Below are positions 59,065 to 64,000 of a stretch of DNA of 64,000 nt, piece after piece. The notes beneath the pieces were generated by a model that saw only the letters and a program-made list of their open reading frames with translations, was not told the DNA's origin and searched no databases. Source of the DNA: an uncultured Acidobacteriota bacterium (GTDB lineage: Bacteria; Acidobacteriota; Vicinamibacteria; Vicinamibacterales; Fen-181); contig CAWEZL010000001.1 in NCBI GenBank assembly GCA_963813585.1, forward strand, positions 118,056 through 182,055, written 5' to 3'. Position 1 is the first letter of the stretch. Each line of letters begins with the position of its first letter. The position numbers and the translations under genes are program-made.

Positions 59065-59602
59065 GATGCGAACTCATCCCACGAAGTACCTACGTGGTGC
59101 GACGTAGATGACGTTGAGTGGGAGGGTCTCGGCCTGACAGCCTCCAGCGCACTCGCTCCATCTCCTTCGGCACGTGGTCGTAGGAGGACGGCGACCGACA
59201 TGTCACGCCGTTTCTCGCCACGACGCGCTGTATCGTCGAATGGCAGTATTTGTCAGTTGTCAGAACCGCTCAGACAGCCGACTCTGCACGCGCGTCACTG
59301 GTTTTTCGCAGCGAGTGCGCGTGTCGCCAGCGGCGGGTCCTCACCCCAGTGAGACGGAACAAAGGCATTAGGCCGTCGCGACCATGTCAACCTCCGGCCA
59401 ACGACTTCCGCAGGGCACGACTGTTGGAGGGCAGGTCCCCAAGGGAAGTACATCAGCGCGTTTCGCCCTGCACCCGCCGTGCCGGGGTCCCCCGGTGTTC
59501 CTAACCGGCTGGGAACACCGACAGCCTCCTGGTTGTCGCCCAGGCAGCCCCGGTCGCGGCGCCTGCGGGTAGAGCTATGACCAGCTAACAAGGAGCTATG
59601 AG

Positions 59603-59818
59603 ATGAAACGGTCGAAAAACCCGACGGTAAGCCGTCGCAAGCTGGCAAGGCAGGCCCTCCTCCTCGCCATGTTGGGCGCAGCCGCCTACACTGCGCCGGC
59701 CAGCGCCCAGAATCCCTGCGGCCCGAACAACAAAGCCTGCCAGGACGTTGGCTTCCCCGGCTGCTGCGGTGGGAGTTGCGTATGCGGCCCGAATTACTGC
59801 GAATGCGCATGCTGTTGA
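59603..59818 (+). CDS. Sec-secreted cysteine-rich mini-protein precursor (71 aa; predicted 36-aa mature peptide with 10 Cys)
   Basis: AAGGAG RBS 7 nt upstream of ATG. Signal peptide MKRSKNPTVSRRKLARQALLLAMLGAAAYTAPASA. Mature QNPCGPNNKACQDVGFPGCCGGSCVCGPNYCECACC with CC, CxC, CxC and CC motifs. Confidence 0.7.
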   Translation: MKRSKNPTVSRRKLARQALLLAMLGAAAYTAPASAQNPCGPNNKACQDVGFPGCCGGSCVCGPNYCECACC

Positions 59819-59851
59819 CCTCGGTCCGCTCCTAACCGGTTAACGAATGGG

Positions 59852-59883
59852 CCGGGGGAGAGTCCCTGCCCCCTCTCCCCCGG
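59852..59883 (+). terminator. perfect 11-bp-stem hairpin between the peptide gene and downstream enzyme genes (attenuator/terminator-like, no T-tract)
   Basis: CCGGGGGAGAG-tccctgcccc-CTCTCCCCCGG lies 34 nt after the peptide stop codon. The RBS of the next gene follows. Confidence 0.4.
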
Positions 59884-59898
59884 CAGGGGAGGTTCTCA

Positions 59899-60396: not shown

Positions 60397-60414
60397 CGGT
60401 AACACAACAAGGTT

Positions 60415-62355
60415 ATGTCCTTGATCGCGACAACCTCAGGTCCACGCCGCCGAATGAGGCTCGGGGCCTTTGTCAGGCTCAGATCGCGGCCCAGCTCCAT
60501 TCATTTTAGAGCCTTAGCGGCCGAGGCGGGTCCTGGCGTGAATCTTCTCACTTGGTGCACGCAGCGCATCGTCCTGAGACTTTGTCCGCATCACCTTAGC
60601 ATCGTGCTCCTAGTGTCGGAATCGGACGCTCCGCTGCTGCCCTTGCCGTCCACGCCCGGGTGCGAGGCGCTGATAGCGCCCTGGGCAGACGACATGGAAG
60701 CGCTCTGCGACGCCTCGAAACGCTTCGGCTGCCGCCACGCGCTCTTTATGTACCCTGAGGCGGCGTTCGGCCCGGTCGAAGTGTTCGATTCTCTACTCGC
60801 CGCCTTCCATTCCCGGAGTTCCGATGTAGTCAGCGTCCGCGGCTTGCCCGAACCTGTCTCGCCACTTCTTCTGGACGTCCCGAAGCTATCGTCCTTGATC
60901 CAGCGGGCGCGCCTGCGACACTCCACTCCCCACAAAGCCGCGGCCGCTCTCCTGCAGCTGCCGGACACCGAAGCTCTGGGGATCAGCATGGCATCTTACG
61001 ACCTGGCCAGCATCCTGGGTAACTCGCCCCTTCCGAAAGTACCAGGGGAGTTACACCTGGAAACCAGCGGCGATCTCGAGGTGGCGAGGGCCGCGATCGC
61101 CGCCGGCGGCACGCTGTCAGCCTGGTGGGAGGCGTATTACGGAATCAACGGCCGAGCTCCGACCGCGACCGTACCGACGCTGCAGCGAAAAGCAAGTGGA
61201 CGCGCTCGCGCAGGCCGCGCTGGACGGTCTGTAGGCGTCCTTGCAGTGACGAACCCGTCGGCACTTACGGGAGCCGAAGTGGTGTTTGCTGATCTTCTGA
61301 CGGGAGTTGCTGCACAGAGAGTCCCAGTGACCGCGTTAGTGGCGTATGAGGGGGAACTCACGCAGCGACTTCGCTCAGGGGGTGTAAGAGTCGAGTGTTC
61401 AAATGAGGAGTTCGGAGGTATGGACGCGAGCGCCTTTGGGCGGCTTCTTCGGACGCTGCGATCCGTGCGGCCGAGAGTAGTGCACATTAACGGGCATTCA
61501 GGTATGGCGGTCGTCTTGGCTGCAGTCGCCGAAGGCATCCCGGTGGTTACACACGTCCACATTTCTCAGATTGACGCCTGGCGTGGCGTGCTACGTGGCT
61601 CCACCCGCGTAATCGTGGTGTCTCCGCATCTCGTGCCACTCGTAATGCAGCACGACGTACCAGAAAGTCGCATCACGGTGCTGGAACCATGCGTTGACAC
61701 AAGCCGATTCGATCCGCTGCTTGTGGAGCAAGTCCTCTCCCGCAGAGAACTCGGACTGAAGCCGGACGCATACGTAATCGGGATGGTGGCACGGTTTGCG
61801 CCAGGCAAGCGACACGACATCGTACTGGACGCCGTCGCTCGGCTTCGGACGATGTCGAAGAAGCAGCTGCAGATTCTCTTTGTGGGTGAGGCCTTCTCGG
61901 GTGAAAGCACCCGAGCAGAAGTGTGTAGGCGCGCTAGTCGACGAGGGCTGGCTGATTGCATTACCTACGCAGGCTATCAGCGTGACATGCCGAAAGTGTG
62001 GGCATCGCTAGACGTGGCGGTGCTGGCGACCGAGTCTGAGGGCCTGCCTGTGTCCCTCCTCGAGGCGTTGGCTATGCAGGTTCCCGTCGTCGCCAGTTAC
62101 ACGCCTGGCATTGACTTAGCCCTTGACCGCGGGAGGATGGGTAGGATTGTCACAGAGCTTGATCCCGAAGCGTTTGCGAGGAGCATCGCTGAGGCTCTGG
62201 ACGAGCCTTTGGACTCGCGGATCGCGAAGCGCGCGTACATCGAGAGGAACTTCGGGTTGCCAGCTGGTGTCAAACGCCTTGTGACGATCTATCGCGAGCT
62301 TGCTGTGGGTAGATGCCGCTCGCAGGGGTCGCAGGCTCGCAAAGGAGTCCCGTGA
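60415..62355 (+). CDS. two-domain glycosyltransferase: N-terminal ~250 aa nucleotide-sugar-binding-like domain + C-terminal GT4 (GT-B) domain
   Basis: C-terminal GT4 motifs ...RFAPGKRHDIVLDAVARL...ESEGLPVSLLEALAMQVPVVAS (E-x7-E). N-terminal domain unassigned. The stop lies 2 nt before the permease ATG. Confidence 0.75.
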   Translation: MSLIATTSGPRRRMRLGAFVRLRSRPSSIHFRALAAEAGPGVNLLTWCTQRIVLRLCPHHLSIVLLVSESDAPLLPLPSTPGCEALIAPWADDMEALCDASKRFGCRHALFMYPEAAFGPVEVFDSLLAAFHSRSSDVVSVRGLPEPVSPLLLDVPKLSSLIQRARLRHSTPHKAAAALLQLPDTEALGISMASYDLASILGNSPLPKVPGELHLETSGDLEVARAAIAAGGTLSAWWEAYYGINGRAPTATVPTLQRKASGRARAGRAGRSVGVLAVTNPSALTGAEVVFADLLTGVAAQRVPVTALVAYEGELTQRLRSGGVRVECSNEEFGGMDASAFGRLLRTLRSVRPRVVHINGHSGMAVVLAAVAEGIPVVTHVHISQIDAWRGVLRGSTRVIVVSPHLVPLVMQHDVPESRITVLEPCVDTSRFDPLLVEQVLSRRELGLKPDAYVIGMVARFAPGKRHDIVLDAVARLRTMSKKQLQILFVGEAFSGESTRAEVCRRASRRGLADCITYAGYQRDMPKVWASLDVAVLATESEGLPVSLLEALAMQVPVVASYTPGIDLALDRGRMGRIVTELDPEAFARSIAEALDEPLDSRIAKRAYIERNFGLPAGVKRLVTIYRELAVGRCRSQGSQARKGVP

Positions 62356-62357
62356 CA

Positions 62358-64000
62358 TGGGTGCGACAAACGCGTTTCGCACGCGGCCGATAGCGAGTGT
62401 GGCAATGGTCCTGACGTTGTCGCTGGGCATAGGAGCCACCCTGACACTCTTTGCGATCCTCCATGCACTTGTGTTGCGAGAGGTGCCATATCCTGAGCCG
62501 AATCGGATAGTCCGGATCATCCCAAAGAGGGTCGGCAGTCCTCTCACCGGGCTCCTCAGCGGGTTTGACTTCGCCGAATGGCGTTCGAACACCCGGGTGC
62601 TCAGCGCCCTCGCTGGCTACTCTGCCGAGCGGCTTGTGCTGGGCACCTCGGAAAGCGCCACGATCACGGAGGTGGTGCTTGTAACTCCATCGATGTTCCG
62701 GGTGCTGGGTACCCGTCCGTCGCTCGGGCGCGCCTTTCGAGAGGAGGACGCGTTCTCAGGAGCCAACCGAGTGACCATTGTCTGCCATAAGCTGTGGACG
62801 GAGCGCTTTGGCGCGGATCCGTCCCTTGTGGGGCGAACAATCACACTCGATGGGATCCCACACGTCGTCGTCGGGGTTCTTCCCGAATGGGTTCGCTTCC
62901 CGCTGCCGGGCGCCGGTGTTTGGCTTCCCCTCGACCCGCGCTCGGAGGTGCAATCCTTCGAGGACGGTCGAAAAAGGGTCCTGGTCAAGCACCTCTCCGT
63001 TGTGGGGCGTCTCCTTCCGTCGGCTTCGATCCCCGCAGTTCGCGCTGAGGGCGAGGCGGTGCTCCGCGAGCCCCGCACGAGGCTGGAAATCTCGTCTCTG
63101 TGGGATGACACGACTGCCGGGATCCGCATGGCTCTGGCGCTAACGCAAGTTGTGACACTGCTCGTCCTCGCCATCGCCTGCGCCAACGTCGCGAATCTGC
63201 TCTTGGCGGAAAGTGTACGGAGCGCGCGAGATACCGCCCTGCGCCTTGCGCTTGGGGCCTCGCGTCGGTCAGTCCTTCGAGGACTTGTCACGACAGCTCT
63301 GTTGCGAACGGCGCCGGCCGGCCCATTGGGCTACCTCCTCGCATGGGCTGGCGTCGAGTGGTTCCGCCGGCGTGTCCCAGGCGTCGGGCCGCCTCTCACA
63401 GGAGCGATGCTCGAGCCTACTGTGGCACTCGTTGGTGTGTTGTTGACCGTTGGCTCCGGGGTCGGAGCCTCGCTCTGGCCGGCTGTGCGGGCGATTCGAT
63501 CTGGGCTGTCGCTCGTTGCGTCTCGTCACACATCGCCAGATTCTGGTCTCCACCGGGAGGTGGCTGCGGGCGAGCAGGCTGCTGGTCGTGTTCCAGATAG
63601 CCCTTTCCTTGACGCTTGTCGTCGCTACCGGTCTGTTGGTTACATCCGTTCGCCGCGTGCTGGAATCCCAACGATTCCTAATCGCCGACGTGCTCATCGC
63701 GGAGGTCTCGCTTCCAGGATCCCTGACGCACGATGTCGAGTCTCGCCGGTCGAAATGGCTCGCTCTCTTGCAGGGCGTGCGCGAAATTCCGGGGGTGCAA
63801 CGGGCGGCCCTCGCAAGCAGACTACCTCTGCGCGGACAGGGATCGCTGCTCCTGGACGTGTCCGACGAAGCCAGCGACTCTGCTATCGAGTTCACGTCCC
63901 GTCATGGCTCGATCACATCGTACGTACTGGTCAGCGACGAGTACTTCGAGACGCTAGGCCTCCGCTTTACGCAGGGAGGCAGTTTCAGCGGAGCGGATGG
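62358..64000 (+). CDS. ABC transporter permease, MacB/FtsX-type with periplasmic MacB_PCD domains (duplicated 'ADOP'-like architecture); partial at window end; one frameshift ~63530
   Basis: MGATNAFRTRPIASVAMVLTLSLGIGATLTLFAILHALVL (TM1). Periplasmic core domain. FtsX TMs (LALTQVVTLLVLAIACANVANLLLAESVRSARDTALRLALGASRRSVL...). The frame switches to ...RWLRASRLLVVFQIALSLTLVVATGLLV... followed by a second periplasmic domain. Confidence 0.8.

Follow-up and report, generated by a model that had tools for sequence, protein, structure and literature searches.

A conserved, horizontally mobile operon of soil Acidobacteriota encoding a small secreted peptide with ten cysteines

The 64,000-nucleotide stretch of DNA analysed here (the window), from a soil acidobacterium of the Vicinamibacterales, ends in four ORFs that all lie on the + strand (59603-64000; ORF list and sequence reading), which raises the question of whether they form one functional unit and what that unit makes. 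A first-pass annotation had proposed that these co-oriented genes sit in lower-GC island DNA and jointly serve a secreted, cysteine-rich peptide. Their orientation was confirmed, as was the drop in GC content (0.61-0.65 at the cassette vs. 0.70-0.74 upstream). As detailed below, the cassette belongs to soil Acidobacteriota and forms a conserved, previously undescribed operon of five genes that is horizontally mobile. The features within the window are as follows.

51778-51867, + strand: tRNA-Ser(GGA) (ARAGORN)
51841-51867, + strand: attL of the cassette island, i.e., the last 27 nt of tRNA-Ser(GGA), AGGGTTCGAATCCCTCTCTCTCCGCCA
51882-53004, - strand: island tyrosine-integrase gene, the window copy being split across three reading frames
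59590-59595, + strand: Shine-Dalgarno sequence AAGGAG, 7 nt before the peptide ATG (read from the sequence)
59603-59818, + strand: gene of the 10-Cys peptide precursor, 71 aa (ORF list, family alignment, pN/pS)
59603-59707, + strand: signal peptide of the precursor, residues 1-35, ending in ASA
59708-59815, + strand: mature peptide, residues 36-71 (36 aa, 10 Cys)
59851-59884, + strand: perfect 12-bp stem with a 10-nt loop, in the spacer between the peptide and thioredoxin genes (RNA folds)
59899-60396, + strand: membrane-anchored thioredoxin-fold protein, 165 aa, GTG start (weak domain matches, profile against PDB)
60097-60108, + strand: CHYC motif (C67-H-Y-C70) of this protein
60415-61227, + strand: N-terminal domain of the glycosyltransferase (GT), residues 1-271, in no assigned family
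61228-62355, + strand: GT4 (GT-B) catalytic domain with E-x7-E (Pfam, model, Foldseek)
62357-64000, + strand: ADOP-type duplicated MacB_PCD/FtsX permease, running past the window end (TIGR03434)

The cassette is carried by a 16-kb island at the tRNA-Ser(GGA) gene, and in L001, a longer contig, the 27 nt of attL appear again 16.1 kb downstream (18386-18412), about 4 kb beyond the window end. The Phage_integrase gene of L001 is intact (371 aa) and aligns to the window only piecewise, in frames -1, -2 and -3, with SNPs and indels dense across the integrase region of the window. An integrase also adjoins the cassette of locus L006, while that of L340 lies in ordinary chromosomal surroundings with no integrase beside it.

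The strong RBS, 71-aa precursor, signal peptide and 36-aa mature part with 10 Cys that had been annotated were all confirmed. An exhaustive HMMER search against 1.84 billion representatives returned 10 small homologues of the peptide (65-82 aa, E 1e-11 to 9e-4), which together with a tandem paralog, one more homolog and the window peptide make a family of 14. All 14 share the pattern C-6-C-7-CC-3-C-1-C-(4..8)-C-1-C-1-CC at their extreme C-terminus, behind a Sec-type signal peptide; the 10 Cys are invariant, length and signal peptide are kept, Gly residues are invariant and loop lengths fixed, and a subfamily of six has an odd count of 11 Cys. The mature peptide is about 28% Cys, with C-x-C and CC motifs. 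Peptide identity between cassette lineages is 40-60%, and pN/pS of the gene is 0.28 (pN 0.127, pS 0.452; diverged pair L339 vs. L006). Judged by these comparisons, the ORF is a true gene under purifying selection, and not the unconserved frame that the first-pass annotation had taken as grounds for refutation. Locus L340 carries tandem peptide paralogues, and within a near-clonal population the ORF is disrupted by an 8-bp insertion (L004) or a 66-nt deletion (L005) while the other cassette genes are intact.

A word-indexed search with the peptide yielded near-identical copies only, no Pfam or NCBIfam family matched it, its match to sublancin among PDB entries was not significant (E 0.58), and its AlphaFold model was unreliable (pLDDT 59). 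The peptide, the N-terminal domain of the GT and the product of the fifth gene are absent from curated families, solved structures and the literature found, in line with the earlier suggestion of an undescribed class.

Also as annotated, the peptide gene is followed by a perfect hairpin and then by a membrane-anchored CxxC thioredoxin-fold protein. The hairpin has no T-tract 3′ of its stem and leads into GGAGG and the GTG start of the thioredoxin gene; a stem-loop occupies this position in four diverged loci (the window, L006, L012 and L016, with a fold z of -3.97 in L016). The thioredoxin-fold protein has a single predicted N-terminal hydrophobic helix, and its family conserves CxxC, SMP and TPT (the cis-Pro loop). 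Its matches to Redoxin, ResA and TraF-like families (Pfam, NCBIfam) are weak, that to Pfam Redoxin reaching 24.6 bits, slightly below the 26.6 cut-off, and the family profile found TlpA/ResA/DsbE-like chains in the PDB (E 2e-6), which supports the fold. TlpA/ResA-type proteins are usually reductants and not oxidants. The C-x-[YF]-C dipeptide, aromatic and without proline, is closer to that of DsbC, DsbG and PDI than to that of TlpA or ResA. The enzyme may work in the oxidising direction. On a phage contig, a homologue of the thioredoxin gene overlaps an unrelated gene for a secreted Cys-rich 85-aa protein, as a moron beside the packaging module, which supports thioredoxin and secreted Cys-rich peptide as a module.

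The GT gene (60415-62355) encodes 646 aa, and its annotation as a GT4 E-x7-E C-domain joined to an unassigned N-domain was upheld. Residues 285-629 hold both GT4 lobes (Pfam Glyco_transf_4, E 2e-15; Glycos_transf_1, E 2e-25), and no membrane helix was predicted. Residues 1-271 gave no Pfam or PDB match, either singly or as a three-sequence profile, although the domain is kept in the GTs of L006, L013, L340 and L343. The AlphaFold model is confident for residues 272-633; in the N-domain pLDDT falls below 50, with a beta-alpha-beta pattern discernible. The structures that Foldseek placed nearest to the GT4 domain (HepE, MshA, BshA and PglA) have small molecules or lipid-linked sugars as substrates, and for this reason glycosylation of the peptide is something we purely infer.

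The permease ATG follows the GT gene after 1 nt, and not 2 nt as annotated. Its MacB_PCD/FtsX domains were annotated correctly; the protein is, however, of the orphan ADOP type (TIGR03434, E 2e-78, with matches on both frame pieces) and frameshifted. At 63541 the window has a T that L001 and L004 lack; this causes a +1 shift, in the window only, after which ADOP homology resumes in the other frame. The intact permease elsewhere has 794 aa, comprises 2x MacB_PCD and 2x FtsX in L004, where it scores 494.8 bits against a curated TIGR03434 cut-off of 622.3, and is predicted to have 8 helices and two large loops. The TIGRFAM description of this family presumably leaves its function unassigned. Between the two cassette subfamilies, ADOPs resemble one another no more than they resemble paralogues from outside such cassettes, so that the permease was possibly recruited more than once. 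The fifth conserved gene encodes an exported protein of about 260 aa with a predicted N-terminal hydrophobic segment; at this locus it is located past the window end and therefore escaped the first-pass annotation. The ATPase, membrane-fusion protein and outer-membrane factor that were to be looked for beyond 64000 are absent from the island and from every related locus, and neither a C39 peptidase nor a DsbB partner accompanies the cassette.

Synteny and family alignment bear out the idea of one conserved unit around a Sec-signalled Cys-rich peptide. In cassette contexts that were all gathered via the peptide, the peptide gene precedes the thioredoxin gene in all eight lineages (the window and seven others); a GT with the window-type N-domain occurs in six of seven, the ~260-aa family in five, and full-length ADOP in five; a sixth lineage has a MacB_PCD/FtsX gene of half the size. 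The peptide gene thus co-occurs with the thioredoxin, GT and ADOP genes in other lineages, as a check of neighbourhood conservation had been meant to establish. In L016 the thioredoxin gene is followed directly by the permease gene, with no GT between. Neighbouring genes are coupled (overlapping or separated by no more than a few nucleotides), and the five proteins co-diverge, with window/L340 and L006/L012 as nearest pairs for all five. Every GT seen with this N-domain adjoins a peptide gene in this peptide-ascertained sample, and the GT/permease pair without a Cys-rich ORF, which would have spoken against the unit, was not encountered there. The arrangement is more than chance, as peptide family, gene order and post-peptide hairpin all recur in diverged loci.

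We hold with moderate confidence that the operon serves to make and handle a cysteine-knotted peptide, very small and secreted via Sec, whose likeliest role is antagonistic and bacteriocin-like; its glycosylation, export and biological role are put forward as conjecture. The precursor would be made in excess over the downstream products, because the hairpin follows its gene, exported via Sec and cleaved after the A-x-A site; in the periplasm, the cognate C-x-[YF]-C enzyme would oxidise its cysteines or shuffle them. The cytoplasmic GT may modify the precursor before export, or else an envelope glycoconjugate for self-protection. Together with the ~260-aa protein in the periplasm and an ATPase from another locus, ADOP could expel the folded peptide from the periplasm or shield the producer from it, both roles being known for machines of the MacB superfamily. 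The STII toxin, for instance, is matured by Sec and Dsb and exported by MacAB-TolC, and producer protection is the task of YknXYZ and the AS-48 pump (PMC5985334). DarB, a duplicated FtsX permease, is annotated as darobactin exporter (NF038008), its match to the L012 ADOP being weak (21 bits vs. a cut-off of 700).

Traits resembling those of competition loci are the island at the tRNA-Ser att site, the L006 integrase, the tandem paralogues of L340 and the strain-level knock-outs of the peptide. Counting against a competition role are the lack of ATPase, adaptor and duct genes in any locus, the possibly repeated recruitment of the permease, the L016 arrangement without GT, the usually reducing nature of TlpA/ResA-type proteins, the 11-Cys subfamily, the small-molecule or lipid-linked substrates of the nearest GT4 structures and the low pLDDT of the peptide model. 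The window permease is frameshifted beside an intact peptide gene; barring an assembly error, this fits poorly with an essential part of the permease in immunity.

Alternatively, though this seems rather unlikely, the peptide could be an exported metal binder (metallothionein-like or a metallophore) whose thiols are kept reduced by the TlpA-like protein, as TlpA does for copper-site proteins in the periplasm, with ADOP exporting or recycling the metal-peptide complex. Its Cys content and motifs, the odd-numbered subfamily and the mostly reducing ResA/DsbE/TlpA-type top matches of its partner would fit, whereas the more DsbC/DsbG/PDI-like active site does not, the invariant Gly residues and fixed loops suit a rigid fold, and the GT is left without a role. 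The MacB-type PvdRT-OpmQ does export pyoverdine (PMC5985334), yet no metal-sensor, metal-pump or chaperone gene occurs in any locus.

It is likewise unlikely that GT, ~260-aa protein and ADOP constitute a module for envelope glycolipid or polysaccharide, like HepE or of the DevBCA type, with which a separate peptide/thioredoxin pair merely travels. Among solved structures the GT4 domain comes closest to HepE, a heterocyst-envelope polysaccharide enzyme, the best NCBIfam matches are exopolysaccharide-type GTs, L016 keeps peptide, thioredoxin and ADOP genes without a GT, the phage contig has thioredoxin and Cys-rich genes alone, and MacB homologues reportedly handle glycolipids (PMC5985334). Against this, the five genes co-diverge and stay translationally coupled across lineages with 40-60% peptide identity; moreover, flippase, polymerase and sugar-nucleotide enzyme genes are absent, and a lone GT could not build a polymer.

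We consider it improbable that the cassette is a conflict or exclusion system of mobile elements, in which phages or rival elements are kept out by the peptide or by an envelope that the GT has modified. Its integrase island and the phage-borne homologous pair are compatible with this, and GTs from related loci score above the Pfam GT4-conflict cut-off (36.1 bits vs. 26); that match is, however, overlapped by far stronger generic GT4 matches, the window GT (23.2 bits) falls below the cut-off, PADLOC gave no match among cassette and island proteins, and the L340 cassette has no integrase beside it. Finally, an ORF arisen by chance in GC-rich DNA amid unrelated neighbours, for which the L004 and L005 disruptions and the near-identical word-indexed matches might speak, is refuted by family alignment and synteny, next to the pN/pS and strong RBS.

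As the first-pass annotation had noted, this operon matches neither glycocin/sublancin loci nor MacAB-TolC/STII. Like the former (SPbeta sunA-sunT-bdbA-sunS-bdbB), it unites a Cys-rich ribosomal peptide, thioredoxin-fold oxidoreductase, GT and transporter in one operon on a mobile element; it differs in its Sec-type signal peptide (vs. a double-glycine leader), its lack of a C39-peptidase ABC exporter and DsbB-like partner, its GT4 (GT-B) enzyme with novel N-domain (vs. GT2/SunS), its 10 Cys (vs. 5 in sublancin) and its diderm host. With STII/MacAB-TolC it shares a small Sec-exported peptide, presumed periplasmic disulfides and a permease of the MacB superfamily that has a large domain in the periplasm and could eject such a peptide (PMC5985334). 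In contrast, its permease, an ADOP, is duplicated within a single chain and lacks an ATPase, whether fused or encoded next to it, as well as a MacA and a TolC gene, its oxidoreductase is dedicated and operon-encoded where STII uses housekeeping DsbA, and the GT and ~260-aa protein are additional. The acidobacterial duplicated orphan permeases of TIGR03434 likewise have an end-to-end 2x(MacB_PCD+FtsX) layout, an acidobacterial host and no adjacent ATPase gene, whereas the island copy scores under their curated cut-off and sits in a defined operon. YknXYZ/SDP, AS-48 FGH, BceAB and DarBCD also place an FtsX-type permease gene beside a peptide toxin gene for export or immunity (PMC5985334), but have an ATPase and usually an adaptor. 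Finally, F-plasmid TrbB/TraF-like proteins and SPbeta BdbA are element-borne thioredoxin-fold proteins presumed to serve a secreted Cys-containing product of the element; the cassette protein matches TraF/TrbB weakly, far below family cut-offs, and is set apart by its N-terminal membrane anchor and C-x-[YF]-C motif.

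A conserved cassette lies at the downstream end of the window, and it comprises genes for a cysteine-rich peptide, a thioredoxin-fold (Trx) protein, a GT4 glycosyltransferase (GT), a ~260-aa protein (past the window end in this host), and an acidobacterial duplicated orphan permease (ADOP). The following features fall within the window:

59603–59818, + strand: 10-Cys peptide precursor gene (71-aa ORF, AAGGAG 7 nt upstream)
59851–59884, + strand: perfect stem-loop with a 12-bp stem and a 10-nt loop (RNA fold)
59899–60396, + strand: gene for a 165-aa Trx-fold protein (GTG start after GGAGG; C-H-Y-C and T-P-T cis-Pro loop)
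60415–62355, + strand: gene for the 646-aa GT (GT4 lobes in residues 285–629, E-x7-E)
from 62357, + strand: gene for an ADOP-type duplicated MacB_PCD/FtsX permease (TIGR03434, E = 2e-78)

The signal peptide of the window precursor (residues 1–35) is of the n-h-c type with ASA at its end, and the other 36 residues hold 10 Cys. A word-indexed protein search returned near-identical copies only. The family came to light through an exhaustive HMMER search, which recovered ten more proteins of 65–82 aa (E = 1e-11 to 9e-4); one extra homologue from an alignment-based search and a tandem paralogue in L340 (the closest relative locus) brought the family to 14 members. The framework C-6-C-7-CC-3-C-1-C-(4..8)-C-1-C-1-CC is common to all 14, ends 0–3 residues from the C-terminus, and is preceded by an n-h-c signal peptide with an A-x-A end; within the mature region only the Cys and two Gly are invariant. 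Between two peptide loci with 81% DNA identity, pS was 0.452 and pN 0.127. Together with the family of 14, these values identify the ORF as a genuine coding gene on which purifying selection acts, and the 71-aa precursor with a Sec-type signal and a 36-aa, 10-Cys mature part that the first-pass annotation had proposed is thereby borne out.

Because the twin arginine of the window copy (SRRKLAR) is not conserved, with most homologues having no RR at that position, export is likely of the Sec rather than the Tat type; the window peptide also gave a weak formate_TAT match (E = 0.016). A lipoprotein was rejected as well, given that the first Cys lies 2–5 residues past A-x-A and that L-[AS]-[GA]-C is absent from the family. 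A PDB sequence search of the peptide against solved disulfide-rich mini-protein folds gave nothing below E 0.5, and its AlphaFold model (pLDDT 59) was too poor for a fold search. When a degenerate DNA pattern of the Cys framework was run against metagenome and viral collections, at least 120 matches were obtained in each, with no family member by HMM among the fetched loci listed.

Six members (P0017, P0019, P0021, P0025, P0026, and P0027) make up a subfamily with the signal-peptide core ELALRLALLAFIG and an eleventh Cys two residues past the first; since 11 is an odd number, one Cys would stay outside any intramolecular disulfide. Within the near-clonal population, comparison of window positions 59596–59782 with the near-identical copies L004 and L005 revealed three indel events in the peptide gene region. 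L004 has an 8-bp insertion at 59722, L005 has lost 66 nt in frame between two repeats that encode CGPN, and both of these variants are disruptive; the third event is a 3-nt insertion within the RBS spacer of L005. L004 spans the cassette, and its Trx, GT, and 263-aa genes are intact beside the disrupted peptide gene.

The stem-loop between the peptide and Trx genes was present in all loci folded, and a single N-terminal hydrophobic helix was predicted for the Trx protein. Single-sequence Pfam and NCBIfam matches of the window Trx protein (Redoxin, Thioredoxin_8, TraF, ResA, DsbE) were all under their cut-offs (e.g., 24.6 bits vs. 26.6 for Pfam Redoxin), and a four-sequence profile searched against PDB reached 3hdc with an E-value of 2e-6 and DsbE and ResA chains with 3e-5 to 4e-4. 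The perfect hairpin followed by a membrane-anchored CxxC Trx-fold protein, as described earlier from the sequence, is consistent with these results. The four aligned homologues all have C-x-[YF]-C and T-P-T (CxxC being visible in two others), and the cassette Trx proteins have these two motifs, SMPF, and the anchor helix in common. The charges around the helix are ambiguous, and a periplasmic orientation is suggested by the homologues. The proline-free aromatic dipeptide of the cassette proteins is presumably nearer to that of DsbC, DsbG, or PDI than to that of TlpA or ResA.

A scan of 185,579 species-representative genomes with the thioredoxin profile gave no relative, and that collection yielded neither the cassette nor the island of the host species. 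The reverse search with the thioredoxin profile gave one match in IMG/VR, on a contig with terminase, portal, and major-head genes (L338, IMGVR_UViG_3300026088_000837). There, at 9884–10629, the Trx homologue overlaps by 4 nt the gene of an unrelated secreted 85-aa Cys-rich protein; inspection by eye of 12 kb of ORFs, six of them also scanned against PHROGs, revealed neither a GT nor an ADOP. This phage-borne pair suggests that the invariant core consists of a dedicated Trx gene paired with a gene for a secreted Cys-rich mini-protein.

Both GT-B lobes of the window GT scored above their Pfam cut-offs (Glyco_transf_4, 57.5 bits; Glycos_transf_1, 89.7 bits), and its E-x7-E motif reads E-G-L-P-V-S-L-L-E. 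AlphaFold, run on a shallow alignment, gave a confident model for residues 272–633, which adopt a GT-B fold with HepE, MshA, BshA, and PglA as the nearest Foldseek hits. The earlier picture of a 646-aa GT with a GT4 C-domain and an unassigned N-domain stands, as residues 1–271 had no match in Pfam or PDB, nor in NCBIfam when the full-length window GT was scanned. This N-domain was modelled with a pLDDT below 50, yet a beta-alpha-beta pattern is visible, and it is homologous between loci (the window and L340 GTs share 41% identity over 627 aa). A word-indexed protein search with the GT returned generic GT4s alone (23–29% identity), and scans of viral collections with profiles of the N-domain and of the 260-aa protein returned nothing. 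Since no membrane helix was predicted for it, the GT must act in the cytoplasm.

The ADOP gene starts one nucleotide past the GT stop codon, which corrects the 2-nt gap reported before. The window permease matches MacB_PCD (E = 1e-20) and FtsX (E = 3e-8), and both domains are duplicated in the intact copy (L004; 794 aa, two MacB_PCD and two FtsX domains). In the window only, an extra T at 63541, absent from L001 (a longer contig of the same island) and L004, i.e., from two independent assemblies, causes a frameshift, past which ADOP homology resumes in the next frame; because scattered single-base indels occur in both long contigs and are absent from short-read contigs, this frameshift may be genuine or an assembly error. 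In TIGR03434 alignments, residues 6–794 of L004 correspond to positions 11–803 of the 803-position model, and the window fragments to 11–395 and 410–554. Compared with the curated cut-off of 622.3 bits, L004 (494.8), L006 (352.7), and L012 (373.7) score under it, and L340 (680.3) is the sole cassette copy above it. The ~800-aa duplicated architecture, the lack of an adjacent ATPase gene, and the acidobacterial host are ADOP features that were all found here. Indeed, no ABC ATPase gene was present in the 16-kb island or in the L006, L012, and L340 loci, and no HlyD (adaptor) or OEP (outer-membrane factor) gene in any cassette. The original MacB/FtsX-type assignment consequently holds for the domains, and has to be amended to a duplicated ADOP-type permease without the ATPase, adaptor, and outer-membrane factor. 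To our knowledge, the TIGR03434 paralogous family has no assigned function; in the literature searches, the phrase "duplicated orphan permease" turned up once, in a Psychroflexus genome paper. The ~260-aa proteins of the different loci form one family, without a Pfam or PDB match, and the L340 member also has none in NCBIfam.

Genomic context was obtained from seven further lineages, in every case reached via the peptide gene (numbers after Trx, GT, and ADOP are lengths in aa):

L006–L011: peptide, Trx174, GT611, 272 aa, ADOP804; integrase close by
L012–L015: peptide, Trx177, GT598, 261 aa, ADOP811
L340/L341: two peptide genes, Trx183, GT639, 238 aa, ADOP792, 232 aa
JGI 3300048101: peptide, 218 aa, GT514, 269 aa; half-size MacB_PCD/FtsX gene upstream
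JGI 3300075153: peptide, 178 aa, 87 aa, GT595, contig end
L343: peptide, Trx178, start of GT N-domain
L016: peptide, Trx145, ADOP; GT absent between

The peptide-Trx-GT-ADOP set, for which neighbourhood conservation had been suggested as a check, thus recurs, whole or in part, in diverged lineages, with L016 having no GT in between. Each of the five proteins gives the same nearest pairs (window with L340, and L006 with L012), which indicates inheritance as one unit. The loop-1 Asn of the peptide was considered as a tracker of GT presence, both being missing from L016, and was rejected because L340 has no such Asn yet has a GT.

Some loci carry further genes. L340 (9068–10222 and 12746–16594) contains two tandem peptide paralogues (75 and 73 aa, 68% identical), a weakly Sigma70_r2-like 202-aa gene upstream, and two paralogues of the 260-aa protein flanking the ADOP gene, with more ADOP paralogues on both sides. 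The stretch immediately upstream of the L006 cassette (1705–4461) holds a 41-aa ORF between or beside genes of the response-regulator/AraC and B12-binding radical-SAM types; since these are absent from the other lineages, they are probably outside the system.

With regard to the host, the TolB in the window is 74–75% identical to TolB of Vicinamibacterales MAGs, indicating a diderm acidobacterium. The cassette DNA has 61–65% GC vs. 70–74% upstream, and the island around it contains:

51778–51867: tRNA-Ser(GGA), with an integrase gene and two HTH_17 genes after it
rest of the island: second ADOP half; 263-aa protein with an N-terminal hydrophobic segment; 72-aa ORF
also there: secreted 172-aa protein whose tail is rich in Cys; 235-aa protein encoded on the other strand

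In L001 (99.4% identical to the window), the last 27 nt of the tRNA-Ser recur 16.1 kb downstream, so that the cassette is cargo of an integrative island with its right end ~4 kb past the window, in agreement with the lower-GC island DNA recognised at first pass. The cognate ABC ATPase, adaptor, and outer-membrane factor that were to be looked for beyond position 64000 are all absent from the rest of the island.

Several other observations concern this region. The 172-aa protein (L001 16725–17243, equal to L004 8788–9306), encoded ~2.7 kb past the window end, has the Cys-packed C-terminal tail GPCYECCLTCDGIQYCACLVSTSCGSCCCRDCCG; by HMM it is no member of the family of 10-Cys peptides, and it lacks a Pfam match. 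The integrase gene (window 51882–53004, – strand) is split over three frames, and encodes an intact 371 aa in L001; over 1.2 kb the two differ by ~60 SNPs and ~25 indels, vs. ~0.1% in the flanks, and the damage reflects either local decay, which would fix the island at its site, or misassembly. Two ~520-bp stretches (54417–54938 and 55978–56500), 88% identical and within two unannotated island ORFs, represent an internal paralogous duplication. Elsewhere in the window (21448–25980, – strand), a single ORF of 1511 aa contains both a full AcrB/ACR_tran domain (residues 4–1012) and an OEP outer-membrane-factor domain (residues 1323–1503); this may be an unusual fusion, or else read-through in GC-rich DNA has joined two genes.

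As a general mechanism, we lean towards a scheme in which the precursor would be exported by Sec and cleaved after A-x-A, the anchored Trx-fold enzyme would oxidatively fold or isomerise the peptide, and the ADOP and the 260-aa protein would handle the folded peptide in the periplasm with an ATPase encoded elsewhere. The cytoplasmic GT may act either on the not yet exported peptide precursor or on some envelope precursor. The handling step finds support in MacB precedents, as STII is Sec/Dsb-matured and expelled by MacAB-TolC and producers of SDP and AS-48 are protected by MacB-type pumps (PMC5985334), and in the NCBIfam naming of a duplicated FtsX permease as darobactin exporter. A bacteriocin-like role within this mechanism is proposed only tentatively; mobile carriage, tandem peptide paralogues, variable inter-Cys loops, and the loss in some strains of the peptide gene but of none of the others fit competition better than housekeeping. 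The boldest version carries a low probability: a Sec-dependent, five-disulfide (possibly glycosylated) knotted mini-protein, folded in the periplasm by a catalyst of its own, would represent a new class among the ribosomal peptide antibiotics of Gram-negatives, and the ADOP and its 260-aa partner would eject it across the outer membrane or shield the producer from it.

The strongest rival, itself decidedly unlikely, is a metal-binding peptide whose thiols a TlpA-like reductase keeps reduced. The 11-Cys subfamily is in line with this, as is the usual reductant role of TlpA/ResA-type thioredoxin folds; however, zero genes with a metal-related Pfam assignment were found in any locus, and the GT would be left without a role. 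That the GT, 260-aa, and ADOP genes form a separate envelope-glycoconjugate module is improbable: the solved structures nearest to the GT and the L016 locus would suit such a module, but co-divergence and operon coupling speak against it. A conflict or exclusion system is possible at a low probability, and PADLOC lends it no support; PADLOC and PHROGs scans of the cassette and island proteins returned nothing except a generic phage GT. A chance ORF in GC-rich DNA is ruled out by the family alignment and pN/pS.

The cassette defines a new and sharply conserved 10-Cys peptide family along with its handling genes, gives an ADOP permease a concrete, testable genomic context, and shows a dedicated Trx gene travelling on islands and phage DNA in company with one for a secreted Cys-rich peptide. 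If the antibiotic reading were true, the large acidobacterial ADOP family and two domains of unknown function would be given a role for the first time, and should the peptide be antimicrobial, an untapped phylum would have supplied a scaffold that is compact and stabilised by disulfides. In soils, Acidobacteriota rank with the most abundant bacteria; they are difficult to culture, and we know of few characterised secreted products from them.

No description of this gene combination was found in the literature, and the peptide, GT N-domain, and 260-aa family have no counterpart in Pfam or among PDB chains (nor, for the peptide, in NCBIfam). The cassette was likened to a glycocin/sublancin locus or to the STII-MacAB route, and matches neither, as anticipated by the first-pass annotation. 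Glycocin/sublancin loci have a double-glycine leader, a C39-peptidase ABC exporter, and a SunS-like GT2 of GT-A fold, whereas the cassette precursors have A-x-A signal peptides, none of the loci has a Peptidase_C39 or ABC_tran gene, and the GT is a GT4 of GT-B fold. The oxidoreductases of glycocin/sublancin loci are a thioredoxin-like BdbA and a DsbB-like BdbB; here a Trx-fold gene is always present, and a DsbB-like membrane partner occurs in none of the loci. With MacAB-TolC, the cassette permease shares the MacB_PCD and FtsX four-helix module, but not the fused or adjacent ATPase, the adaptor, and the outer-membrane factor. Its architecture matches that of ADOP (TIGR03434), although the island copy scores under the curated value (494.8 vs. 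622.3 bits). The cassette is a ribosomal secreted-peptide locus assembled from parts that are non-homologous to those of the known ones.
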